From an uncultured Solirubrobacterales bacterium (lineage in GTDB: Bacteria > Actinomycetota > Thermoleophilia > Solirubrobacterales > Solirubrobacteraceae): a stretch of 64,000 nt of DNA. The notes under the pieces were generated by a model. The model made no database searches, was not told the DNA's origin, and worked only from the letters and a program-made list of their open reading frames with translations. This document shows positions 1 through 41,525 of the stretch, piece after piece. Position numbers and translations under genes: made by a program. The stretch lies in the NCBI GenBank assembly GCA_963757235.1, contig CAVWRC010000010.1, positions 218,009-282,008 of the forward strand, in the 5' to 3' direction. How positions within the stretch are numbered: the stretch's first letter is position 1; each line of letters begins with the position of its first letter.

Positions 1-78
1 AAACGGATAGATGGCCTGGGCGTGACGGGTCGTGCAGCGGTGCCCGGGGCGCCCCGCCGCCGGCCTGGCCCCGCTCAC
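1..78 (-). CDS. 5' end of VirB4-like conjugative ATPase (runs off window)
   Basis: Not in ORF track. GTG at 78 overlaps TGA of the upstream ORF (GTGA). Translates MSGARPAAGRPGHRCTTRHAQAIYPF, resembling the 'HRxTTxHxQAxYPF' N-terminus of actinobacterial VirB4, at the expected operon position. Confidence 0.7.
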   Translation of the reverse strand, partial: MSGARPAAGRPGHRCTTRHAQAIYPF

Positions 79-257
79 GTCCGCCTCCCACGTCGCCGAC
101 CGCGAGCCAGCACGAGCACGAACGCGGCCACGACGACGGCGAGCCACACGGCCGGGGTATGGCCGTGGAGGATCCGGCGCACGATCTCGTCGTAGAGCAG
201 CCGGGCGAGCACGTAGTGCCAGAGGTAGGTCAGGAATGCGGTGGCGGGCGCGGTCAT
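75..257 (-). CDS. 60-aa membrane microprotein in T4SS-like operon
   Basis: 4-nt start/stop overlaps with both neighbours; hydrophobic segments and a basic C-tail (RGRRRGRRT). Confidence 0.7.
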   Translation of the reverse strand: MTAPATAFLTYLWHYVLARLLYDEIVRRILHGHTPAVWLAVVVAAFVLVLARGRRRGRRT

Positions 258-1759
258 CGCAGCCCCCGGCAGAGCGGCAGCGTGAAGGTGAATGCCTCGG
301 CCTGCTGCCCGTACATCCGGTGGAGCTCGAGCCGGGCCCGGACCGCCTGCTCGTGGACCTCGGCGCAGGCCCGGCGCAGGTCGTCGGGATCGCGTCCGGA
401 CACCGTCACGAAGCCCGCCAGCCGCACCTCCGCGTGGCCGGCGGCGAGCTCGGCCTCACGCCGCACGGCCGACTCCTGCGCCTGTCGCTGCCGCGCCGTC
501 TCAGCCTGTCCGAACCGGTGGCGCAGCTCGCGGTCGGCGTGGTCGCGTGTCACGGCGGCCTCGGCCTCGCGCGTCGAGCGCTCCGGCGTGATCGGCTCGA
601 GCGTCACCGCCACCGTGCGCACCACGCTCGAGGCGCCCAGCAGGGCGTCCATGAACATGGGCGAGACGTCGACGCGCGGCCACTGCGCGATCCAGAACGT
701 GGCGTGTAGGGCGCCGTCGGCCCGGTAATGCTCCCAGGACTCGTCCGCGCCGAGGGGCCAGGCACCCGACTCGGCGAGTCCTGCGCGACCCGTATCGGCC
801 GCCTCAAGCGCTGCCAGCTCGGCACGGGCATAGGGATCGAACGCGGTCCGCAGCGCCCGCGCAAGCTGGCCTGCGCTGAGCGCTCCGAGCACCCCCACCT
901 CGGCCGCCTCGATCCCCTGCGCGACGCGTTCGGTCTGCTCGAGCAGGGCGCTGATGCCGTCGTCGGCGCCGCGATCGGCACCGTCGGCGTGGCGCGGATC
1001 GATCTGGACCGCGATCAGCACCTCGTGTTCCTGGGCGGCGCGGGCGGTCGCGCCGATCAGCTCGAGGTAGGACTCGATCATCGGCGTGCCCCGCAGCGGG
1101 ATGCGTGGATCGCGCTCGTCGTGCAGCCAGCGGGCCAGTTCGTCACCCTGCGCCGGAGCGGTCCGCTCGAGCCATTGGATGCGCCGGATCGGACCGCCGG
1201 CGGCTCCCGAGAGGACCAGGCCCCAGCGGGCCAGCCGGCGCTCCTGCGCCTCTGGGTCGAGCAGCGAGAACGCGATCACGCGGCAGGCCAAGACGGCTGT
1301 CAGTCGCCGGCGCCGATGGTCGGACAGCACCCCGATCGCACGGTCCGCGTAGGGCACGTCGAGAATTCGAACGCCCCTGAGCGCAGCCGGCGGACGCGGG
1401 CGCGGCGGTGAGAGCAGGCGGCGAAACGGGCTGGATCGCTCGGCCGCAAACGTCCCGGCGGCCGGGGCGCGTGAACGGAAGCGCAACCGGCGCCTCGCCC
1501 AACGCAGCGAGAACGAGAGCACGACCGGCATCCACTCCTCCGGCGTGCGCCGTCCCACGGGCGCGAACGCGACGGCCAGCGAGACGCCGAACCCAGCCAT
1601 CCCGAGGAACGCGCCGCCGGCCGTGGGCGCGCCATCCAGGATCGCGATCGCGGCCACCGCGCCGGCCGCGACGGCGCCGGCCTGGCCGAGGCGCAGTTGG
1701 CCGAGGAGTCCGCGCCGCTCGAGCGGGCCGAAGCGGTAGGTGACGCGCTCGTCGGTCAC
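254..1759 (-). CDS. SCO6880-like / PrgI(VirB3)-like conjugation protein
   Basis: GTG at 1759 overlaps the upstream TGA. Starts MTDERVTYRFGPLERRGLLG, has a TM hairpin, and ends with the HAEVRLAGFVTVS...YGQQAEAFTFTLPLCRGL motif typical of this family. Confidence 0.8.
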   Translation of the reverse strand: MTDERVTYRFGPLERRGLLGQLRLGQAGAVAAGAVAAIAILDGAPTAGGAFLGMAGFGVSLAVAFAPVGRRTPEEWMPVVLSFSLRWARRRLRFRSRAPAAGTFAAERSSPFRRLLSPPRPRPPAALRGVRILDVPYADRAIGVLSDHRRRRLTAVLACRVIAFSLLDPEAQERRLARWGLVLSGAAGGPIRRIQWLERTAPAQGDELARWLHDERDPRIPLRGTPMIESYLELIGATARAAQEHEVLIAVQIDPRHADGADRGADDGISALLEQTERVAQGIEAAEVGVLGALSAGQLARALRTAFDPYARAELAALEAADTGRAGLAESGAWPLGADESWEHYRADGALHATFWIAQWPRVDVSPMFMDALLGASSVVRTVAVTLEPITPERSTREAEAAVTRDHADRELRHRFGQAETARQRQAQESAVRREAELAAGHAEVRLAGFVTVSGRDPDDLRRACAEVHEQAVRARLELHRMYGQQAEAFTFTLPLCRGLR

Positions 1760-3162
1760 CGCGCATCCTCGTTCGGCCAGACCGGGGTCGAGTCGAAGCG
1801 CTCGCGGTCGAGCTCGAGGGCGGGTTGCTCCGAGAAGGTCTCGGCTCGTGAGTCGCCTGATTCGTCCCGGCCTGGCGGTGGGGCTGGCGGTCCGGCGGGC
1901 GAGTCGGCCGGCGGTTCGGCGGGCGCGTCGGCCGGTTCGGGCGGTTCGGCGGGCGCGTCGGCCTGCGGTCGGGCAGACGCTCCGCTTCCGGACCCCGGTC
2001 CGGGACTTCTCGACGGCGGACCGCCGGCCCCGGCGCTTCCGGCCTCGGCCGCCCGCCGCATCTCTTCCGCGCGCCTCATCCATCCCTCTTCGCCCCGCCG
2101 GGCCTGCGCCTCCGCCCGCATCTCCTGGGCTCCGATTGGCCTGAGCTCGCCTCGCAGCGGCCCTGCCGCGCCCGACGCGATCTCGGCCAGCGGGATCAGG
2201 CGTAACAGCGCCCAGGGCGAGAACGCCGCCAGCATGATCAGGACGGCGCCGGCCATCAGGCCGGTCAGGTTGCCGGCGGAGCTGACCGCGGCTCCCCCGA
2301 GCGACAGCACCGCGACGATCGCGAACTTCGACAGGATCAGCGCGACCAGCAGCTCTACCGCGCGGATCGCCCAGATCCGCCGCGCCGGCCACACGAAGGC
2401 GGCGAAACCGAGCGGGAGCATCAGCACGATCACGTACACCGCCGCCTCGCGCAGCAGCAGCTCGACCCACAGCGTGAACGCGGCCGCGATCATGAACAGG
2501 CCGACGAGGAAGGCGAGGAAAGGGGAGCCGCCCGCTGCGGCGGCCGTGGCGACGATGCCGATCCGACCGAGGAAGTGCGCGCTCGCGTGCCCGGCCGCGG
2601 AGGAGATGAACGAGCAGAGCTGATCACAGGCGGCCAGAAGCAGCATGGTGAGCGGCGCGGCGATTGCGATCGCCAGCATGGCCAGCGGCAGGTATCCGAA
2701 CGCCGCGCGAGCCAACATCGAGACGTCAGAGCGGATCAGCGCCTGGACCGCCGCCGCGAACAAGAACGGCAGCGTCAGCACCGCAGCGATTGCCGCCATC
2801 CGCCAGTAGGTCGAGGAGAACCATGTGGTCCGCAGCTGCGGGCTGGTCGTGTTGCCCAGCGCGGACGCAGTGTCGTTCAGCAGTGTCTGGGCGGAACCGG
2901 TCACCCACCCGTCGATCCCGGCGATCACCGCGTTGGTCGTGGTCGAGGCGACTGCGCCGGCCGCGCCACCGACAAGGCCGCCGGCCGCTCCGGGAATACT
3001 GCCCGTGAGTAGGTCGCCGCCCGCGTTCAGCAGCGAGCTCCCCCCCGGGTTCAGCGCCGAGGTCAGATCCGCCTCGGCCGGGGTCGCGAACAGCGCCGAC
3101 CCACCAGCCGCCACGACGACGCCGATTACCACGGTGAGCCGCGCGAGCCGGCGGACCCTCAT
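1756..3162 (-). CDS. VirB6/TrbL-like polytopic T4SS membrane protein
   Basis: ATG at 3162 overlaps the pilin stop (ATGA). Multiple TM helices, LLREAAVYVIVLMLPLGFAAFVWP motif, Pro/Ala-rich C-tail. Confidence 0.8.
   Translation of the reverse strand: MRVRRLARLTVVIGVVVAAGGSALFATPAEADLTSALNPGGSSLLNAGGDLLTGSIPGAAGGLVGGAAGAVASTTTNAVIAGIDGWVTGSAQTLLNDTASALGNTTSPQLRTTWFSSTYWRMAAIAAVLTLPFLFAAAVQALIRSDVSMLARAAFGYLPLAMLAIAIAAPLTMLLLAACDQLCSFISSAAGHASAHFLGRIGIVATAAAAGGSPFLAFLVGLFMIAAAFTLWVELLLREAAVYVIVLMLPLGFAAFVWPARRIWAIRAVELLVALILSKFAIVAVLSLGGAAVSSAGNLTGLMAGAVLIMLAAFSPWALLRLIPLAEIASGAAGPLRGELRPIGAQEMRAEAQARRGEEGWMRRAEEMRRAAEAGSAGAGGPPSRSPGPGSGSGASARPQADAPAEPPEPADAPAEPPADSPAGPPAPPPGRDESGDSRAETFSEQPALELDRERFDSTPVWPNEDAR
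1911..1963. repeat. 23-bp direct repeat encoding ADAPAEP units in the VirB6-like tail
   Basis: gcggttcggcgggcgcgtcggcc at 1911-1933 and 1941-1963. Confidence 0.85.
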
Positions 3163-3467
3163 TTCGCCGTCGTCCCCAGATGCTGGAAGAAGTTGACCAG
3201 CCCGGGGCCCGCACCGATCACCAGCGCCGACGCGCCCGAGATCACCGCGGCCATCCGGCCCCGAGCCGCGTAGTGCGGGTTGTGCGCATGCGACGCGAGT
3301 GCCCACAGCCCGGCGCCAACGAACGCGCCGATGAGCGCGATGGCCAGCGACCAGGCCTCGGCGCCGTTCACGAGCTGCTGAAGCACGTTGCTGCCCGGTA
3401 GACCGGCGGGGTTCGGCGTGGCCGTGACGTCACCGGCGATGACGAGCGGTCCAGCAAGAAATGTCAT
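3159..3467 (-). CDS. VirB2/TrbC-like pilin (DUF6112-like)
   Basis: 102 aa, 'VTATPNPAGLPGSNVLQQLVNG' plus two hydrophobic helices; RBS GGGGAG upstream; first gene of the operon. Confidence 0.8.
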   Translation of the reverse strand: MTFLAGPLVIAGDVTATPNPAGLPGSNVLQQLVNGAEAWSLAIALIGAFVGAGLWALASHAHNPHYAARGRMAAVISGASALVIGAGPGLVNFFQHLGTTAK

Positions 3468-3479
3468 GTCAGTCTCCCC

Positions 3480-3573
3480 GAGTCTAATTGAGCCAATTGA
3501 ATTCGTAAGACCCTATCAATACTAATTTAGTTGTGGTAGGGTCGAACGACTCAATTAAGTCTCAATTCGACTC
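3480..3573. promoter_or_regulatory. 94-bp imperfect palindrome holding mirror-image divergent promoters
   Basis: Left arm gagtctaattgagccaattgaattcgtaagaccctatcaatacta, centre att, right arm is its imperfect reverse complement; strongly AT-rich versus the flanks. Confidence 0.8.
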
Positions 3574-3576
3574 AAC

Positions 3577-4095
3577 ATGTCTGTACTGGAGAATCTGGAC
3601 GAAGGCGCCCGCCCGGTCGATGTCGGTGAGCTGTATGAGCTGCTGGCCAAGCGGCTGGAGCAGATCGTGCGACTCGACGTGCGCGCTCCCGACGTGGTCG
3701 TCGAGGACGCCTGTCAGTTCGCGTGGAGCCGGCTCGTCCACCATCGCGACCGCGTCCATCGGGAGACGGTCATGACCTGGCTGGCTCGAACGGCCGTGCA
3801 CGAGGCCGTCAAGCTGCTGCGACGTGATCGGCGAGAGCTCTCGATCGACGCGGCTCCGGAATGCGCGGTCCCGGTGGCGGTGGCGTCGAGCTTCCCGCCA
3901 CCGCACACGCTGGTCGAGAGGCGAGAGCGGCTAAACGAGCTGCAGCATCTATCAACCCGTCAGCAGCGTGCCCTTTGGTTGCACGCGTTCGGGCTGAGCT
4001 ATGCCGAGATCGCGGAGAACGAAGGATGCACGGTGCGCACCGTCGAGCGCCAGCTACTCCGGGCCCGGCAACGGATCAGGCAGGACGCCGACTAG
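3577..4095 (+). CDS. ECF-type sigma-70 factor
   Basis: Region 2 (EDACQFAWSRL...WLARTAVHEA) and region 4 (LSTRQQRALWL...GLSYAEIAE...TVERQLLRARQRI); 172 aa. Confidence 0.85.
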   Translation: MSVLENLDEGARPVDVGELYELLAKRLEQIVRLDVRAPDVVVEDACQFAWSRLVHHRDRVHRETVMTWLARTAVHEAVKLLRRDRRELSIDAAPECAVPVAVASSFPPPHTLVERRERLNELQHLSTRQQRALWLHAFGLSYAEIAENEGCTVRTVERQLLRARQRIRQDAD

Positions 4096-4101
4096 TAGCC
4101 G

Positions 4102-4512
4102 CTAGCGCGCCCGCCCGCGCTTGCGCCGCCGGCGCTCGGCCGGACTCAGCTTGCGCGGCTTGGCCCGCGGCTTTGTCCCGTAACGGGGGCCGCTACCGTC
4201 TGGCGACTCGCCGGGGCGGTGACGGACCGGCGCGCGCTTGCGCGCATCGCGCCAGATGTACAGCGAGATACCGCCCAGCACGACGAGCGCGCCGATCCCG
4301 ATGATGAGCGCCGAGTTGCCGGTGAACGCGCTCCCGCTTCCGGCCGTCGCGGACGTGGAGATCGTCGGGGCGGCGGCGGTGGTGGTCGACACCGTTGGCT
4401 GCGGTAAGGGTTCCGAGAAGGGATTAGACGTGGTCGACTGCGCGATCGCCGTAGCCGGCCACGCGAACGCCGCCGAAGCCACGGCGGCAAGGACAACCCG
4501 GGTCGATCTCAT
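4102..4512 (-). CDS. exported/membrane-anchored hypothetical protein
   Basis: Signal peptide, S/T/P-rich stalk, one TM helix, basic tail. Confidence 0.75.
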   Translation of the reverse strand: MRSTRVVLAAVASAAFAWPATAIAQSTTSNPFSEPLPQPTVSTTTAAAPTISTSATAGSGSAFTGNSALIIGIGALVVLGGISLYIWRDARKRAPVRHRPGESPDGSGPRYGTKPRAKPRKLSPAERRRRKRGRAR

Positions 4513-4533
4513 TCCCGCGCCCCCCGATGCCCA

Positions 4534-6048
4534 CTAAGCGAGTGGCTGCTCCATCGCCGGCGTCTCGGGCGCGGCGACGTACGGCTGCTCGTCCGCAACA
4601 TCCTCCTCGTGATACACGCTCTCGGCGTTCACCGCCCAGATGTCGTGCTTCGTGCCCTTGAGGATGTTCTCCACGGCGCGCATTGCCGTCAGCATCGAGT
4701 GGTCGGAGTTGTTGTAGCGGTGCAGGCCGTTGCGTCCGACCTGGATCAGGTTCGGGATCCGGTCGAGCCATCCCCGGATCGTCTGCACCCGCTCGGCATA
4801 TTCGGCGTCGTACATCGGGTACGCCTTGTGGACGCGCACAACGAAGCCCATCTTCACCTTCTCGGCTCGGGCCAGGCCTAGCTGCTGGATCTCGCGCGTG
4901 GCCATCGCCACGAGGTCGTCGTCGCTCGTGCTCCACAGCCCGTCGCCCTCGAAGCAGAAGTACTCCATGCCGATCGACGCGTCGGTGTCGTTCGGGACCA
5001 TGAACGGACTCCATGAGCGGAAGTTCTGGATCCGCCCGACCTTCACCGACGGGTCGTGGATGTAGATCCAGTTGTCAGGGAACACGTCCTCGTCCTCGAT
5101 CACCAGCAGCACCGTGAGGAAGTCCCGGTAGCGCAGGCCACGTGCCCCGTCGCGGACGTCGCCCGGCGCCTCGGGCTCGGCGATCCCGACCGTCGTGCGC
5201 AGCGGTAGCGAGGAGATCACGTACGACGGCGTAATCGTCTCGCCGCCCGCGACGACCTCGGTCACGCGGTCGCCGTCGAGGCGGATTCGCGTCACCGGCG
5301 CGTTCATGCGGACCTCGCCGCCGTGGGCGTGAATCTCGTCGCGCATCTTCTCCCACATCTGCCCGGGGCCGTAGCGGGGATAATTGAACTCCGAGATCAG
5401 CGACTTGATCTTGTTGCCCTTGTTGCCGAAGAACGCGTTCTTTGCCGCCGCAAAGAACGACAGTCCCTTGATCCGCTGCGCGGCCCACTCGGACCGGATC
5501 TCGGATGTCGAGACCCCCCACACCTTCTCGGTGTAGGACTTGAAGAACTGGTTGAAGAGCCAGCTGCCGAAGCGGTTGGTGACCCACTGCTCGAAGGTGT
5601 CCTCGTGCCCCTTCGGCTTGACCGTCGCCCACAGGTAGGAGACCAGGGCCTTGGTCAGGTCGACCGGCCCCAGCTTCTTGATCACGTCCATCCCCTGCAG
5701 CGGGTATTCGAGGAACTTGTGGTTCCAGTAGATGCGGCTCTGTCGCGGGCGCTTGAGGAACTCGTCAGCGAGGATCTCGTGCCAGAGGTCATCGACCTCC
5801 TTGGCCTTGGTGAAGAAGCGATGGCCGCCGAGGTCGAAGCGGTAGCCCTCACGGACGTCAGTGCGCGCGATGCCGCCGACCTGATCCGTCGACTCGAGCA
5901 CGATCACCGGCTTTCCCTGCTTCGCCAGCAGATAGCCGGCGGTGAGTCCGGCCGGGCCGCCTCCGAGGGCCACCACCGGACGCTCGGGGGTGATGTCCGC
6001 ACCGGGCGGCGTGGCGCCCGGGTTGGGATTCGGAGTCGGGTCGGTCAT
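4534..6048 (-). CDS. FAD-dependent oxidoreductase (UDP-galactopyranose mutase-like/PPO superfamily)
   Basis: GGGPAGL dinucleotide-binding motif, RFDLGGHRFF, GRNGLHRYNNSDHSMLT; start placed at MTDPT. Confidence 0.8.
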   Translation of the reverse strand: MTDPTPNPNPGATPPGADITPERPVVALGGGPAGLTAGYLLAKQGKPVIVLESTDQVGGIARTDVREGYRFDLGGHRFFTKAKEVDDLWHEILADEFLKRPRQSRIYWNHKFLEYPLQGMDVIKKLGPVDLTKALVSYLWATVKPKGHEDTFEQWVTNRFGSWLFNQFFKSYTEKVWGVSTSEIRSEWAAQRIKGLSFFAAAKNAFFGNKGNKIKSLISEFNYPRYGPGQMWEKMRDEIHAHGGEVRMNAPVTRIRLDGDRVTEVVAGGETITPSYVISSLPLRTTVGIAEPEAPGDVRDGARGLRYRDFLTVLLVIEDEDVFPDNWIYIHDPSVKVGRIQNFRSWSPFMVPNDTDASIGMEYFCFEGDGLWSTSDDDLVAMATREIQQLGLARAEKVKMGFVVRVHKAYPMYDAEYAERVQTIRGWLDRIPNLIQVGRNGLHRYNNSDHSMLTAMRAVENILKGTKHDIWAVNAESVYHEEDVADEQPYVAAPETPAMEQPLA

Positions 6049-6061
6049 TGTCGGGAGGCTC

Positions 6062-7669
6062 TCAGGAAACCTTCTGGTAGAGGACCGCGCTGTACGCGAG
6101 GATGCTGGCTCCGCGGTAGTTGTGTGGCGCGTAGGCAATCGGCTTGAGCACGCCGTTGTTGACGTCGGCCTGGAGGATCTGGCCCCACTGCGCCGCGCGC
6201 AGGCGGATCAGGTAGGTCCACGACGCCTTCCAGTTGGTCACGCCCTCGGTCAACGGCCGAACGTACAGCAACTGCTGTCCCGGCCTGAGGCTAGCAACGA
6301 GCGGATCGAGGGTCGCCGCGGGATTCGCGGCTTGCAGACGCTTCTGTGCGTGGACCCAGTCCATGTAGCTGGCGTCCTTGACCGGCCCGATCGTCGTGGC
6401 GTAACGCAGGCCGGCGGGCAGGTAGTACCAGGCGAGCGGCGTGGAGTCCGGCTGCGCGTTCACGACCAGGTCGCCGCGGTGCAGCAGCGGCGTCATCTCG
6501 CCACTGATGTCCTGCATGTCGCTCTTGTAGCGCGGCGCGTACGACGAGGGATGAACCACGAAGAAGAGCGTCAACACGATGCAGACCAGCCCGAGGACGC
6601 CCGACCGAGCCGCGCCCCAAGCGGCCAGCAGCAGAATCGACGCGAGGATCGGCGCCATGTAGCGAGCCACGAATGCCGGGGTGATCTGCGAGGCCAGCCA
6701 GGCGATGATCAGCGTGCCGGCGATCAGCCAGATCAGGGACCACATGATCGTCCCGTCACGGGTGCGGCGGCCGCGTTTGGTGAACAGCGGAGCGAGCCCG
6801 ACGATCCAGGCCACGAGCAATGTCACCGTGATTCGATCGGCGCCGAGCAGATCGCGCGACAGGAGCACCGGCACGCCGAAGCGAATGGTCGGCGCCCACG
6901 GCGCGCCCGTGTGGGTCGCCTGGTAGATGAAGTTGGGCACCCACGGCAGGAACAGCACAGCGGCGCCCACGTACGCGAGCACGGCGTCGCGCACGATGCC
7001 CCGGCGGTCGTCGCTCGTCAGCCAGATCGGGATCAGGGCGACGACCGAGCCGGCGGCGAAGAAGATGCCCCACGCGTGCGTGTACAGCATCAGCGCCTCG
7101 CACACCGCGAACACGATCACGTAGCGTCTTCGCCGGTAGACGAAGCCGTGGATGAACGCGGCCGTCTGGATGATGCCGAGCAGGCCCATCAGCTCGTACA
7201 TCCGGGCCTCCTGCGCGTACGCGGTCAGAAACGTGCTGAACGCGCACAGGACCGCCATGTACATGCCGGTGCGGCGGTCGAACAGACTCCAGCCCGCCCA
7301 CAGTCCGGCCGGGATCGTGAGCAGCCCGAACAACAGCGACAGCGAATGCGCGGCGGCTTCACCGGCCCCGAACCACCCGATCCAGAAGTGGAGTAGCAGG
7401 TAGAACAGCGGCGGCGAGCCATCGTGGCGCAGGATGCCGGGGATCGCGCCGAGCGAGTGCGAGGCGATGCCGGTCGTGATCGCCTCGTCTTCCCAGAATT
7501 GGCCAACGGATCCGTCGATGTAGCGCGTCCGGATGAAGGCCGACAGGGCCATCAGCACGACCAGGAAGATCGTCGTGCTCAGCCAAACGGGCACGCGCTC
7601 GAACCAGTGCGGCGTCTTCAGGTCGGCAACGCGCGGGATGCCGCCCGGGGGCGCGGTCGCCGTGGCCAT
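6062..7669 (-). CDS. GT-C (GT39/PMT-like) glycosyltransferase
   Basis: FWEDEAIT...HDGSPPLFYLLLH...EARMY motifs; many TM segments. Confidence 0.85.
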   Translation of the reverse strand: MATATAPPGGIPRVADLKTPHWFERVPVWLSTTIFLVVLMALSAFIRTRYIDGSVGQFWEDEAITTGIASHSLGAIPGILRHDGSPPLFYLLLHFWIGWFGAGEAAAHSLSLLFGLLTIPAGLWAGWSLFDRRTGMYMAVLCAFSTFLTAYAQEARMYELMGLLGIIQTAAFIHGFVYRRRRYVIVFAVCEALMLYTHAWGIFFAAGSVVALIPIWLTSDDRRGIVRDAVLAYVGAAVLFLPWVPNFIYQATHTGAPWAPTIRFGVPVLLSRDLLGADRITVTLLVAWIVGLAPLFTKRGRRTRDGTIMWSLIWLIAGTLIIAWLASQITPAFVARYMAPILASILLLAAWGAARSGVLGLVCIVLTLFFVVHPSSYAPRYKSDMQDISGEMTPLLHRGDLVVNAQPDSTPLAWYYLPAGLRYATTIGPVKDASYMDWVHAQKRLQAANPAATLDPLVASLRPGQQLLYVRPLTEGVTNWKASWTYLIRLRAAQWGQILQADVNNGVLKPIAYAPHNYRGASILAYSAVLYQKVS

Positions 7670-9400
7670 CTACCCGCTCACCTTACCTGGGCATGTCGAG
7701 AACACCCGGAACGTGCGAACGTGCGCAATCAGCGTGTAACGAGCGCCGTCGTGCTCCCAGGCGATGATCTGCTGCGGGGTGGGGAGAAGGGTGGCGTTCG
7801 ACTGGGCGCGGGTCTGGAGGATCACGTTCGGCCACGGTGGACCGGCCAGCGTGGCCGGCTCGGCCTCGACGCGCAGGGTGCGAACGCCGAGCGTCCAGGC
7901 CACCATCGGGACCTGGAAGCCCTCGGTCATCACCGATCCGCACCGGAGCAGCGCCTGTGCGCCGCCCGCCTGTGCCACTGCGGCGTTCAGATCGTCGCGC
8001 AGGTGCGCCTGGTAGATGAGGGCGTGATGGGTCCGGGGCAGGCTGATGACGTTCTTGCTGATCCACGGCGGCACGGCCAGGAACAGCGCAATCGCCGCCG
8101 CGGTCCCGATCGGGAGCGCGACCCGCGGGGCAGCCAGCCCTGCCAGCCTTGGACTTCGCTCGGCGAGCCAGCGGACGCCGCGTGCGGCCGAGCGCATCGC
8201 CCAGCCCCAGCCGACGCCACCGGCGATGGCTACCGCCGCCGTCCCGAACACGAGGTAACGGTCATTGCCCGAGAACCCGGCCTGGGTCTCGAACGCGATG
8301 ATCAGCCACCACACAAGCCCGTACCCGCCGATGATCAACAGCCACATCCGGCCGCGCGTCGGCGGGGTCATCGGGCTCTGCCTCCACCACGAGGCGCGTG
8401 TGCGCCACAAGCCGACCGCGGCCACGATCATCGCGAGGATGCCGGCGATCTTGACCCGGTTGAGCACGGTTGGCCACGCTTCCTTCTCGTACACCGTGCA
8501 CACCGGGCACTTCGTGAATGCGGCGCTGTTAGCGCGTGGGTGCTGAGCCCGGGTGACGCCGCGGAGAAGGTGACCGGACCCCCAGAGCTCGGGCAGGAAC
8601 CACAGCACCGGGATGAGCGCGAACAGCGCCACCACCAGCCGGCGCGCGCCCGGATCCTTCCAGAACAGGTAGAGCCCATACGGGCCCCAGAAGAGCCACA
8701 ACTCGGGCCGGTCGAGCGCGGCGAAGAAGCCGATCACGAACGCCCGTTGGCGAGCGCCGTCCAGGTAGCTGTCGACCGCCATCAGCCCGAACGCCGTGGC
8801 GAGCCCCTCCGAGTAGCCGAGCGCGTTGTCGGACACGAAGCCGCCCGAATTGATGAGGCTGCCCGCGGCGATCAGGCCCGCGAGGGCCGGCGCGATCAGC
8901 ACCATCCAGCCGGGCGCCCGTGTCTCGACCTCGGTCCCCGAGACGATGTCGCGGGTTATGCGCCAGGCGACCTTGAACACCATCACCACCGCCATCACGG
9001 CGCCGGCTCGTGCGATCACGAGCCACAGGTCCGGCTGCGCCTTGCCGAACAGCGCGAACGGAACCGTGAACAGCATCGGCAGCGGCTTCCACGAGGGCCC
9101 GCCGGCCGTATGCAGGTCGAAATGGATGATCTCGTGGCCCCAGACCAGCCACGCCCACGGGTCGTAGCTCGGGGTGGACGGGATCGCCAGGGACAGCGCC
9201 GCGATGACCAGCGCCGCGCCCGCGAGCCAGAGATAGAACGAACCGCCGCTGAGACGGGCGGTGAGCGCGCGAGCCCGCGCCGTGGCGTTGGCCGACGGCG
9301 CCGGTGCAGTCAGCTCTGCGGTAGGAACAGACAAGGAGACCGGAAGATGTGGTTGGTGCCGCGCTCGCAAGTTACGCACGGCGGCGGCAGACGCGTACAC
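7670..9400 (-). CDS. polytopic membrane protein, probable GT-C glycosyltransferase
   Basis: SYDPWAWLVWG, SWKPLP, YSEG and RPE motifs; multiple TM helices; start codon uncertain. Confidence 0.7.
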   Translation of the reverse strand: MYASAAAVRNLRARHQPHLPVSLSVPTAELTAPAPSANATARARALTARLSGGSFYLWLAGAALVIAALSLAIPSTPSYDPWAWLVWGHEIIHFDLHTAGGPSWKPLPMLFTVPFALFGKAQPDLWLVIARAGAVMAVVMVFKVAWRITRDIVSGTEVETRAPGWMVLIAPALAGLIAAGSLINSGGFVSDNALGYSEGLATAFGLMAVDSYLDGARQRAFVIGFFAALDRPELWLFWGPYGLYLFWKDPGARRLVVALFALIPVLWFLPELWGSGHLLRGVTRAQHPRANSAAFTKCPVCTVYEKEAWPTVLNRVKIAGILAMIVAAVGLWRTRASWWRQSPMTPPTRGRMWLLIIGGYGLVWWLIIAFETQAGFSGNDRYLVFGTAAVAIAGGVGWGWAMRSAARGVRWLAERSPRLAGLAAPRVALPIGTAAAIALFLAVPPWISKNVISLPRTHHALIYQAHLRDDLNAAVAQAGGAQALLRCGSVMTEGFQVPMVAWTLGVRTLRVEAEPATLAGPPWPNVILQTRAQSNATLLPTPQQIIAWEHDGARYTLIAHVRTFRVFSTCPGKVSG

Positions 9401-9525
9401 AGCCTGCGCACCGAGCGCGGGCGACGCGCCAGCATTCTAGTCGGACGAGCCGATAGGCCTCGGCCTTCCGGACGGCGCCTCCGGACCGGGCTCATGTAGC
9501 GCGCGCCGGGCTCAAACCGCGTCGG

Positions 9526-9975
9526 CTAACCCGAGACGCCCTGCTGCAGGCAGGCCGCGATGCTGGCCAGCTCGCCGCCCGAGCCCTGGTTGGGGTAGAC
9601 GAGCGCGGTGCCGATCACCTCGGCGGCTTGCGTCTTTCCCTCGATCTGATCGGCTTGCGCCGCCCCAGGGCTGTTCGTGAACACGATGGTGGGCCCGGCC
9701 GGAGGTGAGCCGACCCGCAGCTCGATTGGGCTGACCACTTGAACCGGCAGGTGCGCGCCGCGAATGCAGCCGATGTGGTTGTCGATGTCGGTCAACGGGC
9801 TGTCGACATCGCCCCGGCTGGCGAGCGTGCTTGACCCGCTCGGGGTGGTCGGCTGCACCCGGACCGCGCCGCACCCGGCAAGCGCGATCGCGCAGCCGAG
9901 CAGCGCCATCAATGCCCGCGCCGGAGTGCCGGCAGGCCGAGGTACCCGCGATGAGACGTGCGTAACGGACGGCAT
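9526..9975 (-). CDS. putative lipoprotein
   Basis: Lipobox-like LAGC after a hydrophobic stretch. Confidence 0.7.
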   Translation of the reverse strand: MPSVTHVSSRVPRPAGTPARALMALLGCAIALAGCGAVRVQPTTPSGSSTLASRGDVDSPLTDIDNHIGCIRGAHLPVQVVSPIELRVGSPPAGPTIVFTNSPGAAQADQIEGKTQAAEVIGTALVYPNQGSGGELASIAACLQQGVSG

Positions 9976-10007
9976 GCGATTTCGAAAGGTAGAGGATCAT
10001 CCTGACT

Positions 10008-11627
10008 GTGCTCCTGTACGGCGCCCTGTCCGGACCGCTGCCGAAGCTGGGCGTAGTGGCGGTGGCGCTCATCGCGGCCGTGGTCATGCTCCATCGCGAC
10101 GCGCGGGTCCAGGCGGTGGCCACACTCGCTGCGCTGGTGCTTTCGCCGGTGCTGCTGCTCGCTGCCATCTGGCACTCACCGCAGCTCGGCGTCGTGCATC
10201 GCCATCCGCTCTTCGCGGTGGTTGGCGCGATCGTCGCGGTCGGGGTGGTGATCGCCGCGGCCGTCGCAGTCGACCGGCGGCCGGCTCTGCTGGCCGGCGC
10301 GGTGCTGATTGCGCTGCCGTTCCGAATCCCGATCCAGGCCGGTGGCACCACGGCCAACCTGCTGGTGCCGCTGTATTTCGTCGTCGCGGCCGGATCGGTC
10401 GCGTTCGTCTTCCGGACGCTCCGGCCGGGGGCGGGTGCCGCGATGGGCGCCACGGCAGCCACGGACACCGATCACAACGCGGTGCCGGGCACTGATCACA
10501 AGGGGTCGGGCACCGATCTCTCCGACCGCACCGCCCCCGCCGCCGAGCCGGCCCGCTGGCTCGAGCGGCTGCTCGCCGCGTTCGTCGTCCTCTACGGCCT
10601 GCAAGCGACGTACTCGCCGGCCTTCCAGACGGCCCTTCAGAACATGGTGTTCTTTTACGTCCCGTTCGCGCTCGCCTACTGCCTGCTGCGCCGGATCGAC
10701 TGGACGCCGCGCCTGACGCGGACCTGCCTGGTGCTGATCGCCGGCCTGGCGGTGCTGTTCGCGCTCGTGGGCTTCGTCGAGTACGCCACCAAGACGATCT
10801 TCCTGAACCCGAAGCTGATCGCCGCCAACGCCAACCACACCTACTTCGCGGTCAACTCGGTGTTCTTCGACTCGAACATCTTCGGCCGGTTCATGGCGCT
10901 CGTGATGGTCCTGCTGGGCGCAGTGCTGCTCTATGCCCGCAGCCGGCGAACCCTCCTCGGAACCCTCGCGGTGCTGGCGATCGTGTGGGTCGGCCTCGTC
11001 CTCGCCGTGTCGGGCTCGAGTCTCGGGGCGCTCCTGGTGGGGCTCGGGACGCTGGCCGCACTCCGGTGGAAGGTCGATCGGGCGGTTTTCGCGGCGGCCG
11101 CAGTGGTGGCCCTGGCGGCGGCGGCGGTCGCAGTCACGCCGACGACGTTCGGGCTCAACCAGGGCTTGAACGGCGCCTCGAGAGGCCGCGCAGGACTCGT
11201 GAGCGGGGGCCTCGACCTGTTCTCCGAACGACCGATCTGGGGGTACGGGTCGGCCTCGTTCGAGACCGAGTACGGCAAGCGCCACCATGTGCTCGGCGAG
11301 ACCACGTCGGCGTCGCACACCATTCCGATCACCATTGCCGCCGAACAGGGCCTGATCGGCGAGATCGCCTACATCGCGCTCGTGCTCGCGGCGTTGATCA
11401 CGCTGCTGCGCCGTGCCCGGGCGGATCCCGCTCGGGTCGCCGTCGCGGGCGCGTTCGTGGCGCTGGTCTTCCACACCCTCCTGTACGCGGACTTCCTCGA
11501 GGATCCGATCACCTGGACGCTGCTTGCGATCGGCGCCGCGCTCGCCCGGCAGGCGCCGGCGGCCCGGGCGGCGCCGGGCAGCGACATCCTCGGACGCGGT
11601 CGCAAGCTCCAACGCCAGCTCGCGTAG
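10008..11627 (+). CDS. O-antigen ligase family membrane protein
   Basis: Polytopic; DSNIFG, 'RPIWGYGSASF' and SHT (periplasmic-loop His) motifs. Confidence 0.8.
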   Translation: MLLYGALSGPLPKLGVVAVALIAAVVMLHRDARVQAVATLAALVLSPVLLLAAIWHSPQLGVVHRHPLFAVVGAIVAVGVVIAAAVAVDRRPALLAGAVLIALPFRIPIQAGGTTANLLVPLYFVVAAGSVAFVFRTLRPGAGAAMGATAATDTDHNAVPGTDHKGSGTDLSDRTAPAAEPARWLERLLAAFVVLYGLQATYSPAFQTALQNMVFFYVPFALAYCLLRRIDWTPRLTRTCLVLIAGLAVLFALVGFVEYATKTIFLNPKLIAANANHTYFAVNSVFFDSNIFGRFMALVMVLLGAVLLYARSRRTLLGTLAVLAIVWVGLVLAVSGSSLGALLVGLGTLAALRWKVDRAVFAAAAVVALAAAAVAVTPTTFGLNQGLNGASRGRAGLVSGGLDLFSERPIWGYGSASFETEYGKRHHVLGETTSASHTIPITIAAEQGLIGEIAYIALVLAALITLLRRARADPARVAVAGAFVALVFHTLLYADFLEDPITWTLLAIGAALARQAPAARAAPGSDILGRGRKLQRQLA

Positions 11628-32836: not shown

Positions 32837-33190
32837 ATGCGGACGACCAGCTTCACCCGGACGGTCACCTTCGGCCGTCTGGAGATCGTGTCCTTCACGC
32901 ACTCGTGCGTCTATCTGTCCTTGCTCGTCTGCGCCTTCGTACTCCACAACCCACAGCCCGAGACCTTCGTGCTGGGCCTGGCCCACGGCCTGATTTGGAT
33001 CGGGATGTCGCTGGTGTGCATCGCCGCCGCCCGCGCGCGAATCGTCCCCTACTGGCTCGCCGTCACGGTCGCCGTGCTCGGCGGCCTGGGCCCGTTTGCG
33101 GGCTCGATCGGGTTCGTGATCGAGGACCGGCGGCGTAGGCAGCGCTCGGTTTCCCGGCTACCCTTGAACGCAGCAGATGGCAGTCAGTAG
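32837..33190 (+). CDS. small membrane protein (DUF3817-like)
   Basis: Three TM helices, GLAHG and GPFAG motifs. Confidence 0.7.
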   Translation: MRTTSFTRTVTFGRLEIVSFTHSCVYLSLLVCAFVLHNPQPETFVLGLAHGLIWIGMSLVCIAAARARIVPYWLAVTVAVLGGLGPFAGSIGFVIEDRRRRQRSVSRLPLNAADGSQ

Positions 33191-37759: not shown

Positions 37760-38788
37760 GTGCACGACATGGCGATCGACCTCGGGACCGCCAACACGCT
37801 CGTGTATGTCGGCGGGCGTGGGATCGTGGTGTCCGAGCCCTCGGTGGTCGCCTCCGACGTTGACACCGGTCTCGTCCATGCGGTGGGCGCCGACGCCGAG
37901 CGGATGATCGGGCGCACACCGGCCACGATCGCGGCCACCCGGCCGCTTCGGCACGGGGTGATCGCCGACTTCGAGGTCACAGAGGAGATGCTGCGCTACT
38001 TCATCCGCAAGGTGATCGACCGCCGGATGGCGCATCCGCGGCTGATCGTGTGCGCCCCGTCGGGGGTGACCGAGGTCGAGAAGCGGGCGGTCGAGGAGGC
38101 CTCGCTCGCGGCCGGCGCGCGGCGCGTGCACCTGATCGAGGAGCCGATCGCGGCGGCGATCGGGGCTGGGCTCGGAATCGACGAACCGCTGGGGCGGATG
38201 GTCGTCGACGTCGGCGGCGGCACGAGTGAGATGGCGGTCATCTCGCTCGGCGGGATCGTGGTGTCGCGCTCGGTTCGCGTCGGCGGCTACGAGATGGACG
38301 AGGCGATCACCTCCTACCTGCGCGGCGCCTACCAGCTGGCCATCGGATCGAGGACCGCTGAGCGGATCAAGATCGAGAGCGGCTCGGTAACGCCGCTGCA
38401 TCCCGAAGAGACGATCGAGGTCCGGGGCCGGCACCTGGTGACCGGGCTGCCGACCGCGGTCGAGCTGCACTCGGAGGAGGTCCGCGCCGCGATCATGGCC
38501 CCGGTGCGCGAGATCATGCGGGCCATCCGCGAGACGCTTGAGGAGACGCCGCCCGAGCTGGCCTCGGACATCGCCAAGGACGGGATCCTGCTCGCCGGCG
38601 GCGGCACGATGATTCGCGGCTTCCAGGAGCTGGTGGCCGGGGAGACCGGAATGCCTGTGTACTCGGCCGAGTCGCCGCTGACGTGCGTCGCCTTCGGGTC
38701 AGGCCAGGCGCTCGCGCACTTCGACCAGCTGACTCGGGCGGGCCGCCACCGGGTCCCCAGCCTCACGTCCGACTGGCGCACGGCGTAG
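37760..38788 (+). CDS. mreB: rod-shape actin-like protein MreB/Mbl
   Basis: DMAIDLGTANT, APSGVTEVEKRAV, EEPIAAAIG, VDVGGGT; start at GTG 37760 or ATG 37769. Confidence 0.93.
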   Translation: MHDMAIDLGTANTLVYVGGRGIVVSEPSVVASDVDTGLVHAVGADAERMIGRTPATIAATRPLRHGVIADFEVTEEMLRYFIRKVIDRRMAHPRLIVCAPSGVTEVEKRAVEEASLAAGARRVHLIEEPIAAAIGAGLGIDEPLGRMVVDVGGGTSEMAVISLGGIVVSRSVRVGGYEMDEAITSYLRGAYQLAIGSRTAERIKIESGSVTPLHPEETIEVRGRHLVTGLPTAVELHSEEVRAAIMAPVREIMRAIRETLEETPPELASDIAKDGILLAGGGTMIRGFQELVAGETGMPVYSAESPLTCVAFGSGQALAHFDQLTRAGRHRVPSLTSDWRTA

Positions 38789-41341: not shown

Positions 41342-41347
41342 ATTCGT

Positions 41348-41478: not shown

Positions 41479-41525
41479 CTTATCAAGAGTTGACGCGCCG
41501 GTGATTGACCATTGGCGGCGGCGCC

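Follow-up and report, generated by a model that had tools for sequence, protein, structure and literature searches.

The window, by which we mean the whole 64-kb stretch of DNA analysed here, opens on the minus strand (positions 1-3467) with a translationally coupled operon of VirB2/DUF6112-like, VirB6/TrbL-like, SCO6880-family and microprotein genes and the start of an ATPase gene. This operon probably descends from an actinobacterial conjugative mating-pair-formation module that has become fixed in the chromosome, is passed on vertically and retains only the cytoplasmic-membrane core, now performing a host function. We consider the module co-opted because, among soil Solirubrobacterales, well over a hundred species have it at one and the same chromosomal spot, with conservation on a par with housekeeping genes. 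A relative of the conjugation machine, stripped down, would thus serve as a host function of Solirubrobacterales.

Gene content and the split VirB4

The first gene of the operon encodes a small pilin-like membrane protein of the VirB2/TrbC type (102 aa, positions 3159-3467). It is followed by genes for an SCO6881-like, VirB6/TrbL-like polytopic membrane protein (468 aa, 1756-3162), an SCO6880-family protein (501 aa, 254-1759) and a microprotein (60 aa, 75-257), and then by the first 26 codons of VirB4C, a VirB4 C-terminal-domain ATPase (1-78, GTG start at 78), the remainder of which lies left of the window. An earlier note on this DNA had placed a five-gene type IV secretion (T4SS) operon here with all genes coupled by 4-nt stop/start overlaps; all five are present on the minus strand, and the four overlaps can be read directly in the sequence (ATGA at 3162-3159, GTGA at 1759-1756, ATGA at 257-254 and GTGA at 78-75). 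Its VirB4-like gene was not identifiable from the window alone, because just 26 codons lie inside it, but the identification stood when their translation, VSGARPAAGRPGHRCTTRHAQAIYPF, proved to match, without a single difference, the first residues of a complete 423-aa ATPase encoded by a public contig (L289) from the same or a near-identical strain.

For the left flank we relied on a contig with 99.2% identity (L081/L287) and a species with 87% identity (L001) in place of the window's own record. There the operon continues with the 423-aa VirB4C, a VirD4 coupling protein and a 138-aa protein, p138, and then gives way to housekeeping genes (glutamate decarboxylase, GAD; glycerate kinase; FAD dehydrogenase; ATP-dependent DNA ligase). 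A check of this side, proposed earlier, thus yielded VirD4 and neither relaxase nor integrase. To the right, Pfam matches gave the order previously described, with a divergent ECF sigma gene, a 136-aa membrane protein, an amine oxidase, PMT_2-like glycosyltransferases and Wzy_C.

The SCO6880-family protein matched its family model NF042935 with 293.8 bits (cut-off 60; 2.5e-87), and its AlphaFold2 model (pLDDT 81.9, pTM 0.81) retrieved TrwK/VirB4 of R388 (8rtb_B) in Foldseek with an E-value of 1.2e-10 over about 390-420 aligned columns. As modelled, the protein is an N-terminal transmembrane hairpin (helices 24-42 and 50-68) joined to a VirB4 N-terminal domain, and since this makes it the missing N-terminal half of VirB4, VirB4 is here split into two genes. 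The other half is VirB4C, whose alignment to VirB4 models is confined to their C-terminal half: the 423-aa ATPase matches the crystal structure of a VirB4 C-terminal domain (PDB 4AG5, 2.5e-19), and the L001 orthologue aligns with positions 439-727 of the TIGR00929 VirB4_CagE model (5.5e-16) and carries the Walker A motif GKLGQGKS. P0163 (883 aa) is a natural fusion of SCO6880 to the ATPase, and P0318 is a further natural fusion. Several databases label SCO6880 homologues as EccE, a type VII (ESX) component, and the protein does have a weak Pfam EccE match (27.4 bits) and an N-terminal transmembrane hairpin similar to that of EccE. However, EccE reached just E 0.05 in Foldseek against 1e-10 for VirB4, a preference of nine orders of magnitude, and no EccB, EccC, EccD, MycP or WXG100 genes were found near the operon. 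The EccE label on SCO6880-family homologues is a misannotation.

The VirB6 and VirB2 assignments are putative, as some of the matches behind them are transitive or lie under the threshold. The SCO6881-like protein has no direct Pfam match and falls under the curated cut-off of NCBIfam SCO6881_fam (7e-15), and is 39% identical (E 2e-49) to a protein of locus L284 that matches Pfam TrbL/VirB6 (1.6e-7). Its topology comprises a signal peptide, a Gly/Ala/Thr-rich extracytoplasmic region of ~95 aa, about six transmembrane helices and a Pro/Ala/Glu-rich tail. The pilin-like protein, with two hydrophobic helices, matches Pfam DUF6112 (28.7 bits, cut-off 25; 1.2e-6) and, under the cut-off, T4SS_pilin (18.2 bits, 2.7e-3); it is 41% identical (E 8e-18) to a protein of locus L286 that has DUF6112 and a weak TrbC match. 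The microprotein, which overlaps each of its two neighbours by 4 nt, starts with an amphipathic motif, has a single transmembrane helix and ends in an Arg-rich tail. We regard it as accessory because the ORF with its conserved motif F-x-T-Y-L-W-H-Y-x-x-A-R-L-x-Y-D is found in 19 of 75 loci, with short remnants at some others and none in a Conexibacter-like clade.

VirD4 is identified by T4SS-DNA_transf (9e-39), TraG-D_C (3.6e-21) and TrwB_AAD_bind (2e-13) matches, and keeps a Walker A motif and a Walker B-like LLCLDE motif. The p138 gene overlaps it by 4 nt at almost every locus. p138 has 33 invariant residues and is confidently modelled as a four-helix bundle for which no fold or family match was found; comparison with the plasmid gene at the same position by hhalign (E 0.09) is suggestive only. 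It may be a cytoplasmic adaptor of the coupling protein, or a substrate.

Together, the VirB2-like protein, the VirB6/TrbL-like channel, the split VirB4 (SCO6880 protein and 423-aa ATPase), VirD4 and p138 would form the core of one apparatus. In such an apparatus the VirD4-type coupling protein would select a cytoplasmic macromolecule, possibly with p138, and the two ATPases would drive it across the membrane through the VirB6-like channel. The leading candidate for the substrate, just short of an even chance, would be a protein; DNA is a tentative choice, and a role in envelope or division with no exported substrate, as in the cmd cluster discussed below, a fainter one. The usual wall-crossing parts of monoderm T4SSs are a VirB1-like hydrolase, a VirB8-like protein and an adhesin. 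All three are absent from the operon, and a complete cell-to-cell channel is therefore not evident; a hydrolase, effectors or a relaxase may be encoded elsewhere in the genomes.

The ECF sigma gene and the shared control region

The ECF-type sigma factor (positions 3577-4095, plus strand) was recognised by Sigma70_r4_2 (1.1e-13), Sigma70_ECF (4.7e-7) and TIGR02937 (4.2e-14), and a search for plasmid-borne relatives at E <= 1e-3 returned none. Its gene lies directly upstream of the pilin gene, in divergent orientation, in all loci with room for it, and this adjacency is kept even where genes are inserted between the ECF gene and the amine-oxidase block. Between operon and ECF gene is an AT-rich, dyad-symmetric control region of ~100 bp (3468-3576 in the window), conserved at every locus examined. 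Its nearly invariant core, AATTGAGnCTAAnTTGA, occurs once in the window. The control region has an inner inverted repeat, CCTAGCA-N13-15-TGCTAGG, where both strands show TGnTAGGnT, which reads like an extended -10 element, and TCAATT repeats about 10 bp apart face each of the two divergent genes. No ECF-type -35/-10 motif was recognised, and a consensus sigma-70 scan was empty. No RNA run contained the locus. The window's copy folds with z = -6.9, and the proposed pairs are Watson-Crick in 66% of cases across 84 sequences, compared with 15-30% when the register is shifted, but few compensatory changes are seen and RNAalifold returned no consensus structure. The linkage suggests that the ECF sigma factor controls the operon, setting its expression through what would be a conserved, symmetric divergent promoter region.

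Fixation, selection and absence of mobile-element genes

The operon is fixed in the chromosome under purifying selection. In all ~80 species-level loci anchored on SCO6880, the module, ECF gene and control region share one position, with the order glycosyltransferases, amine oxidase, ECF sigma, pilin through VirD4, p138, GAD. The genomes compared are nearly all MAGs, and frameshift noise affects some of them. In an independent sample, for which the flanking amine oxidase served as anchor, 72 of 73 informative genomes had the operon beside that gene. A close relative of VirB4C was found in 340 species-level genomes. Presence is not patchy, given the synteny in about 80 loci and in the 72 of 73 flank-anchored genomes; the pilin-ECF-glycosyltransferase synteny that the earlier note proposed to check holds, and the strain-specific distribution it had set beforehand as refuting its reading was not seen. 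Values of dN/dS were 0.14-0.25 for pilin, VirB4C, VirD4, p138 and SCO6880 (lowest at the locus, 0.14, for the pilin-like gene) versus 0.22-0.38 for the flanks, figures to be used for comparison only, as dS approaches saturation and GC3 bias lowers it. In pairwise comparisons the T4SS genes diverge in step with the flanking genes (r = 0.8-0.9), to the same degree as flanking genes do among themselves. Codon usage pooled over the operon, a comparison suggested earlier, was host-like (RSCU distance 0.10 versus a background of 0.094 +/- 0.024).

The absence of integrase, relaxase, tRNA and att-like repeats from the 64 kb, also claimed earlier, held within the scope of our scans. There was no tRNA in the window, no att-like direct repeats bracket the module, and Pfam found no integrase or relaxase domain in 37 further window ORFs (all called ORFs of at least 250 aa and several shorter ones, few of them below about 200 aa), which encode core metabolism. 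No relaxase was found within 64 kb on one side and 10 kb on the other, in the window and about 150 orthologous loci.

Related systems and alternative readings

The closest precedents are cmdABCDEF of Streptomyces coelicolor and the relaxase-less T4SS of Patescibacteria. Several Streptomyces species share the cmd cluster (SCO4126-4131; paralogous cluster SCO6871-6884) as a conserved part of the chromosome. It is co-transcribed, and among its products is a membrane-bound ATPase resembling VirB4, with homology to the plasmid transfer genes SLP2.21-23. Mutants that lack the cluster are disturbed in aerial growth, septation and chromosome segregation; a relaxase is not reported, and the cluster could not replace plasmid transfer genes and is dispensable for plasmid transfer (Xie, Zeng & Qin 2009, PMC2782261). 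By family membership, the operon shares with it SCO6880 (CmdC-like) and SCO6881 (CmdD-like) membrane proteins, and also a VirB4-like ATPase of the C-terminal domain only. In contrast to cmd, which belongs to Actinomycetes with sporulating mycelium, the operon is found in Thermoleophilia, is attached to an ECF sigma gene and a symmetric control region, and has a clear VirD4 and p138, whereas CmdA may or may not be a coupling protein. The Patescibacteria T4SS is lineage-wide, conserved, chromosomal conjugation machinery of monoderm type that lacks relaxases in most clusters and is interpreted as co-opted for a non-conjugative role (Microb Genom 2025, PMC12102498). It resembles our operon as relaxase-less conjugation machinery turned conserved chromosomal trait of a whole lineage, but it is an independent co-option in an unrelated lineage with another gene set, including a full-length VirB4 and neither ECF sigma nor p138, and its proposed link to an epibiotic lifestyle is inapplicable to Solirubrobacterales.

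Actinobacterial plasmid and ICE T4SSs (MPF_FATA-like; Streptomyces and Arthrobacter plasmids; Iamia sp. SCSIO 61187, NZ_CP050950) share the order DUF6112, VirB6-like, SCO6880, VirB4 C-terminal ATPase, coupling protein, small downstream protein, with VirB4 split in the same way. The Iamia plasmid has this order next to a MobF relaxase, which bears out the earlier view that it is typical of actinobacterial mating-pair modules, and SCO6880-family genes are present on 112 actinobacterial plasmids at identities of 39% or less. These plasmid modules, however, are mobile in distribution, whereas the operon is fixed, and they alone have the MobF relaxase, a ParA-like ATPase, an HTH gene, cell-wall hydrolases of the CHAP-domain or D-Ala-D-Ala carboxypeptidase type and, between the pilin and VirB6 genes, one more gene, for a protein of 230-290 aa. 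That likeness, along with somewhat lower GC3 in the pilin (z = -3.0) and ECF (z = -4.4) genes, would suit an ICE or its inert remnant lying by chance among housekeeping genes. We consider this very improbable: the operon keeps a fixed place across well over 100 species-level genomes, purifying selection is at housekeeping level with co-divergence of the flanks, pooled codons are host-like, and the locus yielded no integrase, relaxase, tRNA or att repeat. The same observations support the earlier preference for a domesticated apparatus over an ICE.

The shared protein families, the chromosomal conservation and deletion phenotype of cmd, and the envelope glycosylation genes adjoining the locus in most Solirubrobacteraceae genomes would also fit a CmdABCDEF counterpart, that is, a membrane complex for envelope assembly, division or chromosome partitioning with no classical secreted substrate. 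We find this quite unlikely, since the retained VirD4 substrate receptor and p138 argue for a translocated substrate, and in the Conexibacter-like loci L065, L068 and L070 the connection with the glycosylation block is broken or inverted. Moreover, as far as we know, cultured Solirubrobacterales neither form mycelium nor sporulate, so the phenotype of cmd mutants cannot be transferred to them as it stands. Built-in chromosomal conjugation, or DNA export or uptake, with VirD4 fed by a relaxase and oriT elsewhere or by a relaxase-independent route, is likewise unlikely. The module does descend from conjugative modules adjoining MobF relaxases, its coupling protein has retained the all-alpha 'DNA-binding' domain of TrwB along with ATPase motifs that are intact, and cmd mutants have chromosome-segregation defects (PMC2782261). 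Yet no relaxase was found in the window or in about 150 orthologous loci, the operon has no wall-spanning or adhesin component, ECF control is atypical for conjugation, and cmd is no substitute for plasmid transfer genes. Were this reading true, Solirubrobacterales would have lineage-wide chromosomal DNA exchange or DNA release. The positions of two genes would suit it and may be coincidence: many loci have the ATP-dependent DNA ligase about 5 kb downstream, and in L286 a LigD Prim-Pol gene adjoins the related module.

Parts of the operon and a VirB4 ATPase divided over two genes

The operon lies at window positions 1-3467 on the minus strand, in actinobacterial DNA of about 70% GC. The earlier note had described pilin-like, VirB6-like, SCO6880/PrgI-like, microprotein and VirB4-like genes coupled throughout by 4-nt overlaps, and this observation was right: four complete genes and the start of a fifth lie on the minus strand. 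The first gene (3159-3467) encodes a pilin-like protein of 102 aa with two hydrophobic helices, which matches Pfam DUF6112 above the cut-off and T4SS_pilin below it. It is followed by genes for a SCO6881-like protein of 468 aa (1756-3162), a SCO6880-family protein of 501 aa (254-1759) and a microprotein of 60 aa (75-257), while the fifth gene starts at 78 and exits the window after 26 codons. Start and stop codons of successive genes overlap at ATGA (3162-3159), GTGA (1759-1756), ATGA (257-254) and GTGA (78-75). The last gene had also been called VirB4-like; this identity is not visible in the 26 codons inside the window, but it is borne out by a matching contig that continues the operon.

The genes left of the window were read from near-identical contigs. 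A public metagenome contig (L081) encodes exactly the same SCO6880 protein and, over 11.7 kb, shares 99.2% identity with the window; the microprotein recurs on other contigs as well, a short NCBI contig (L289) among them. In L289 the gene after the microprotein encodes an intact protein of 423 aa, the first 26 residues of which are identical to the translation of window positions 1-78; the protein is 96% identical to its orthologue in L001, the locus of the closest species-level genome (87% nucleotide identity). The next gene, again with a 4-nt overlap, encodes a VirD4-type coupling protein of 567 aa. This gene, which lies outside the window, is also present on L081 and a second near-identical contig (L287) and at the start of L289. 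The L001 orthologue of VirD4 matches T4SS-DNA_transf (9.2e-39), TraG-D_C (3.6e-21) and TrwB_AAD_bind (2.2e-13), and the protein has two N-terminal membrane helices, an intact Walker A motif and a Walker B-like motif.

The VirD4 gene is overlapped by 4 nt, in almost every genome, by a gene for a 138-aa protein, p138. Across 18 diverse orthologues p138 has 33 invariant residues, and its structure model is a confident four-helix fold. It has no family in Pfam or NCBIfam and no PDB fold match, and a resemblance to DUF4913 was considered, not confirmed and dropped. The fixed translational coupling to VirD4 suggests that p138 is a partner of the coupling protein, an adaptor or the cargo itself. Beyond p138 lie genes for glutamate decarboxylase, glycerate kinase, a PNPOx-like protein, an FAD dehydrogenase, an ATP-dependent DNA ligase and an iron-dependent repressor. 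In many genomes the ligase, which is of the LigD type, follows the operon at a distance of about 5 kb (L001:19947-20894).

The window's SCO6880 protein is a curated member of its family (NF042935, 293.8 bits against a cut-off of 60) and shows a weak match to Pfam EccE. A profile of SCO6880 proteins retrieved nothing from PDB sequences, and the likeness to VirB4 was revealed by fold comparison only. An AlphaFold2 model built from an alignment of 50 homologues (pLDDT 81.9, pTM 0.81) matched the TrwK/VirB4 chains of R388 over about 390-420 columns with an E value of about 1e-10 (1.2e-10), and the next unrelated match, EccE of ESX-5, reached an E value of 0.05 only. The 423-aa ATPase covers only the C-terminal half of the VirB4/TraC models (positions about 430-760), aligning with VirB4 positions ~439-727 at 5.5e-16; the L289 protein matched the crystal structure of the VirB4 C-terminal domain, 4AG5, at 2.5e-19. 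Its Walker A motif is intact (checked in the L001 orthologue). The two genes are also fused in nature, in a protein of 883 aa (P0163) and probably in a second of 928 aa (P0318). Together, the modelled fold, the C-terminal-only ATPase and the natural fusions show the SCO6880 protein to be the membrane-anchored N-terminal half of VirB4, the ATPase being split over two genes. Its transmembrane hairpin occupies the position expected of VirB3. Since each gene represents half of the protein, the scores fall below the curated cut-offs for full-length VirB4. Given this identity, the name EccE, which SCO6880 homologues carry in many databases, is a misleading misannotation, and the reading as VirB4 N-terminal halves corrects it across a family of about 4,600 clusters at 50% identity (4,579 at E <= 1e-3). 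Type VII (ESX) secretion was rejected on the same grounds: the EccE match is weak, the fold is VirB4-like and the neighbouring genes are those of a type IV secretion system (T4SS), with none for EccB, EccC, EccD, MycP or WXG100 substrates among them.

The assignments of the SCO6881-like and pilin-like proteins as putative VirB6 and VirB2 are weaker. The SCO6881-like protein has a signal peptide, a Gly/Ala/Thr-rich outer region, about six transmembrane helices and a proline-rich tail. It is homologous to SCO6881_fam (NF047967; 7e-15) below the threshold for membership (54.9 bits, cut-off 325). Neither the window protein nor any of three orthologues had a direct match to Pfam TrbL. A protein on another actinobacterial contig (L284) shares 39% identity with the window protein (E 2e-49) and itself matches Pfam TrbL/VirB6 at 1.6e-7, and the VirB6 assignment is thus partly transitive. 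The pilin-like protein is 41% identical to a protein carrying DUF6112 and a weak TrbC match; a VirB2-like protein gives no grounds to infer a pilus in a monoderm. The C-terminal tail of the SCO6881-like protein (window ~1890-2030, minus strand) is of Pro/Ala/Glu-rich low complexity, with ADAPAEPPEP in tandem twice, and is conserved less than any other stretch of the operon, which fits the high dN/dS of 0.42 for this gene. Frameshifts in the tail are common in orthologues from long-read MAGs and hindered extraction of these orthologues for the family scan. The microprotein is real but accessory: its motif is conserved in 19 of 75 loci, remnants persist in some, and it is absent from the Conexibacter-like clade.

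Long-term vertical conservation of the module

Genes of the SCO6880 family are present on 112 actinobacterial plasmids, at identities of 39% or less. The best match, a 34-kb Iamia plasmid, has the order ParA-like ATPase, DUF6112 protein, 287-aa protein, VirB6-like protein (annotated 'type IV secretion system protein'), SCO6880, 433-aa ATPase, HTH protein, coupling protein and 150-aa protein, and has genes for a MobF relaxase and a cell-wall peptidase as well. An Arthrobacter plasmid, typed MOBF, adds a CHAP hydrolase. The Solirubrobacterales operon is this plasmid-type module minus the relaxase, the partitioning ATPase, the hydrolase and the extra periplasmic protein. Neither a VirB8-like protein nor a peptidoglycan hydrolase (VirB1-like, CHAP or NlpC/P60) is encoded in the operon, whose overlapping genes leave no gap and no further ORFs; these parts may be encoded elsewhere in the genome. 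Between p138 and the Iamia protein at the same position, BLASTP found no significant similarity and hhalign gave an E value of 0.09, and p138 has no significant similarity to its counterpart on L284.

With such plasmid relatives, the module might have been an integrative and conjugative element (ICE) or the remnant of one. The earlier note had instead proposed a domesticated chromosomal system, reporting no integrase, relaxase, tRNA or att-like repeat, and our searches agree. The 64-kb window contains no tRNA gene. We compared 37 further ORFs of the window (all those called at 250 aa or more and several shorter ones) with Pfam and found no integrase or relaxase domains among them; these ORFs encode core functions, including citrate synthase, MTHFR, pyruvate kinase, a 2-oxoglutarate dehydrogenase fusion, aconitase, a principal-type sigma factor and dCTP deaminase. 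No relaxase match was recorded in the ~10 kb left of the window on a near-identical contig, and direct repeats around the module did not exceed chance-level matches.

The distribution of the module is likewise that of a host gene set. A scan with one genome per species yielded 109 SCO6880 relatives, and in the best 80 of these loci (SCO6880 identity 56-91%) the whole neighbourhood keeps one gene order: two GT-C-like glycosyltransferases, amine oxidase, a 136-aa membrane protein and a divergent ECF sigma factor, followed by pilin, SCO6881, SCO6880, ATPase, VirD4, p138, glutamate decarboxylase and glycerate kinase. To avoid circularity, a second sample was anchored on the flanking amine oxidase. 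Among 80 loci so chosen, the operon adjoins in 72, seven end too soon and one is ambiguous, which places it at the same site in 72 of 73 informative genomes; the site is thus conserved and the occurrence is not patchy. When the ATPase of the cultured Conexibacter sp. S30A1 was used as query, relatives were found in 340 species-level genomes.

The sequences have also diverged together. Pairwise protein distances of T4SS and flanking genes correlate with r of about 0.8-0.9, equal to the correlation among the flanking genes themselves. The dN/dS values, which are comparative only since dS is compressed in this GC3-rich genome, were 0.14 for pilin and ATPase, 0.21-0.25 for p138, VirD4 and SCO6880, and 0.42 for SCO6881, against 0.22-0.38 for the flanking enzymes. 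When pooled, the codon usage of the operon is host-like and indistinguishable from the background, lower GC3 being confined to the short pilin and ECF genes. With no relaxase or integrase among the scanned ORFs, no tRNA in the window, no att repeat around the module, a non-patchy distribution, co-divergence with the flanks and host-like codons, an ICE or ICE remnant was rejected; the T4SS module is a vertically inherited host trait.

Some individual carriers call for comment. Two MAGs, SMAG_U5889 and SMAG_U15164, have the ATPase gene on two contigs each (L326/L336 and L013/L365), owing to a second copy or to a bin of mixed strains. A Solirubrobacterales-type locus in MAGs labelled Burkholderia sp. 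and Acetobacteraceae (L067, L366) probably reflects binning errors and not transfer. The flank itself includes an envelope-glycan block (window 4102-11627) made up of the 136-aa membrane protein, which is Thr/Pro-rich with an Arg-rich tail, an amine-oxidase-like flavoprotein, two large GT-C/PMT_2-like membrane proteins and a Wzy_C protein. In Solirubrobacteraceae-like genomes this block and the T4SS locus are syntenic, and in Conexibacter-like ones the block is inverted or absent.

The ECF sigma gene and the proposed control region

The ECF sigma gene (3577-4095, plus strand) always lies directly upstream of the operon in divergent orientation, even where several kb are inserted between it and the amine-oxidase block. 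Because this adjacency persists despite insertions, the ECF gene belongs to the module. Despite its strict linkage, the sigma factor evolves fast (36-94% identity, dN/dS 0.42), and its gene has the lowest GC3 of the window genes examined (0.80, z = -4.4). No anti-sigma gene is evident adjoining it. The factor shows no similarity to the sigma gene of the Arthrobacter plasmid and has no plasmid relatives, so co-domestication of the ECF gene with the secretion genes is unsupported. From the fixed arrangement we infer that the ECF sigma factor controls the operon.

The 109-bp spacer between the two (3468-3576) is AT-rich within a 70% GC genome and is conserved across the order. Beside the ECF start it contains a nearly invariant AATTGAGnCTAAnTTGA. 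An inner inverted repeat, CCTAGCA-N13-15-TGCTAGG, has arms that read TGnTAGGnT on either strand, which would fit two back-to-back promoters, each with an extended -10 element, and TCAATT repeats ~10 bp apart face each gene. A consensus sigma-70 promoter scan of window positions 1-4600 gave nothing, and no ECF-type -35/-10 motif was recognised by eye. A search of RNA-seq runs turned up none that covers the locus.

The region in the window folds as a long hairpin (z = -6.9), and its dyad symmetry is conserved across loci (66% Watson-Crick pairing against 15-30% in shifted registers); a structured RNA was therefore considered. Despite this strong fold, RNAalifold returned no consensus structure and compensatory changes are few; the excess of G-U pairs comes mainly from one fixed position, and Rfam had no match in the region. 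Because of the few compensatory changes and the missing consensus structure, the region is more likely a symmetric operator/promoter acting at the DNA level than a structured RNA. When all genomes were scanned with the control-region motif, chance matches in AT-rich genomes dominated. Among the matches listed, eight were from Solirubrobacterales and all were this same locus, and a regulon could not be inferred from them.

Related chromosomal systems, possible function and other window loci

Similar minimal chromosomal modules occur in other uncultured Actinomycetota. One contig of a different lineage carries a five-gene module (L285:5933-14429) between seryl-tRNA synthetase and a flagellin/FliD region, with a divergent histidine kinase and response regulator in the place held by the ECF sigma factor in Solirubrobacterales; this layout suggests repeated domestication with different regulators. 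On a contig from the same sample as L081 (L286:2-2856 and 3310-9366), two YD-shell (Rhs-like) proteins are directly followed by a related module of DUF6112/TrbC, fused SCO6881-SCO6880, ATPase and coupling protein, and then by a LigD Prim-Pol gene, with MurT/GatD near. The YD proteins could be cargo, in this single case.

The conserved chromosomal operon cmdABCDEF of Streptomyces (SCO4126-4131) includes a VirB4-like ATPase, CmdB, with its ATPase domain at residues 44-427, and membrane proteins resembling SCO6880 (which resembles CmdC), SCO6881 and transfer genes of plasmid SLP2 (PMC2782261). Its deletion disturbed aerial growth, septation and chromosome segregation and raised actinorhodin, and left plasmid transfer unaffected (PMC2782261). 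Judged by sequence, our locus shares its set of protein families with cmd: a curated SCO6880 family member (CmdC-like) and an ATPase of the size of a VirB4 C-terminal domain with Walker A (CmdB-like); its SCO6881-like protein, a homologue below the curated threshold, may be the CmdD-like member. It differs in lying in another class of Actinomycetota and in having a recognisable coupling protein, p138, an attached ECF sigma factor and a conserved control region. A 2026 preprint describes a TraC-SCO6880-DUF6112 context in Frankia, and in Patescibacteria a lineage-wide, mostly relaxase-less chromosomal T4SS was interpreted as co-opted (PMC12102498, 2025). We found no publication on such a T4SS in Solirubrobacterales.

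Starting from the part identities (tentative for VirB6 and VirB2), the VirB4 split and the long-term vertical conservation, which we otherwise regard as established, a mechanism can be proposed. The parts would assemble into a translocon of the cytoplasmic membrane; VirD4, perhaps with p138, would pick a cytoplasmic macromolecule, the split VirB4 and VirD4 would energise its passage through the VirB6-like protein, and the ECF sigma factor would turn the system on. Since it has no hydrolase or VirB8-like part, the locus does not show a full route across the wall. As to the substrate, we lean tentatively to a protein because there is no linked relaxase, an adaptor-like partner is present, the regulation would be of the type that answers extracytoplasmic signals and a related module stands beside YD-repeat proteins. 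DNA as the substrate, which the coupling protein's domains would allow and which would have to be moved with no relaxase linked, is a somewhat less likely choice; the position of the DNA ligase and the Prim-Pol gene by the L286 module may point to a role involving DNA or may be fortuitous. A structural role like that of cmd is favoured by the shared families, and the coupling protein, p138 and ECF sigma factor set the locus apart from cmd; we consider this role the least probable of the three.

On a bolder and less probable reading, Solirubrobacterales would carry in the core genome an ECF-controlled minimal T4SS, with a split VirB4 and with p138 as a new partner of the coupling protein, that serves a lineage-specific intercellular function: it would either exchange chromosomal DNA with no relaxase linked or deliver proteins on contact to neighbouring cells. 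Were this true, free-living Actinomycetota would have their first functional, non-conjugative T4SS with a defined substrate. Diderm pathogens offer well-documented cases of conjugation machines taken over for host functions; in monoderms such co-option is, to our knowledge, known only sketchily, from Streptomyces cmd, which has no known mechanism, and Patescibacteria. The present locus offers a clean and deeply conserved case: across an order-level radiation, a module of seven genes, the ECF sigma gene among them, keeps to one chromosomal site and is constrained like housekeeping genes, and it has a sigma factor of its own and a conserved control region. It also defines a parts list for a minimal membrane T4SS core (VirB2-like, VirB6-like, split VirB3/4, VirD4 and p138). 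The function is testable in at least one carrier, Conexibacter sp. S30A1 (NZ_CP097127.1), which is cultured and has a closed genome; the closed MAG chromosomes OY969768.1, OY969904.1, OY969785.1 and OY970167.1 carry the locus too. Solirubrobacterales are among the most abundant actinobacterial orders of soil, and a DNA substrate or an interbacterial effector would bear on gene flow or competition in this dominant soil lineage.

Three other loci in the window were recorded. A third PMT_2-like gene lies at 38.7 kb (38699-40105). A c-di-AMP (ydaO-type) riboswitch at 41333-41481 on the minus strand (68.1 bits, gathering score 38) stands directly upstream of a minus-strand gene (40205-41341) for a 378-aa protein with a C-terminal Rpf-like 'Transglycosylas' domain; a c-di-AMP riboswitch with a cell-wall hydrolase is a classic actinobacterial pairing. 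A single plus-strand ORF of 1471 aa at 33177-37592 comprises two lipoyl domains, an E3-binding domain, an E2 acyltransferase core and a full E1 2-oxoglutarate dehydrogenase; this E2o-E1o fusion is complete, more so than is known for Kgd/OdhA-type fusions in Corynebacteriales.
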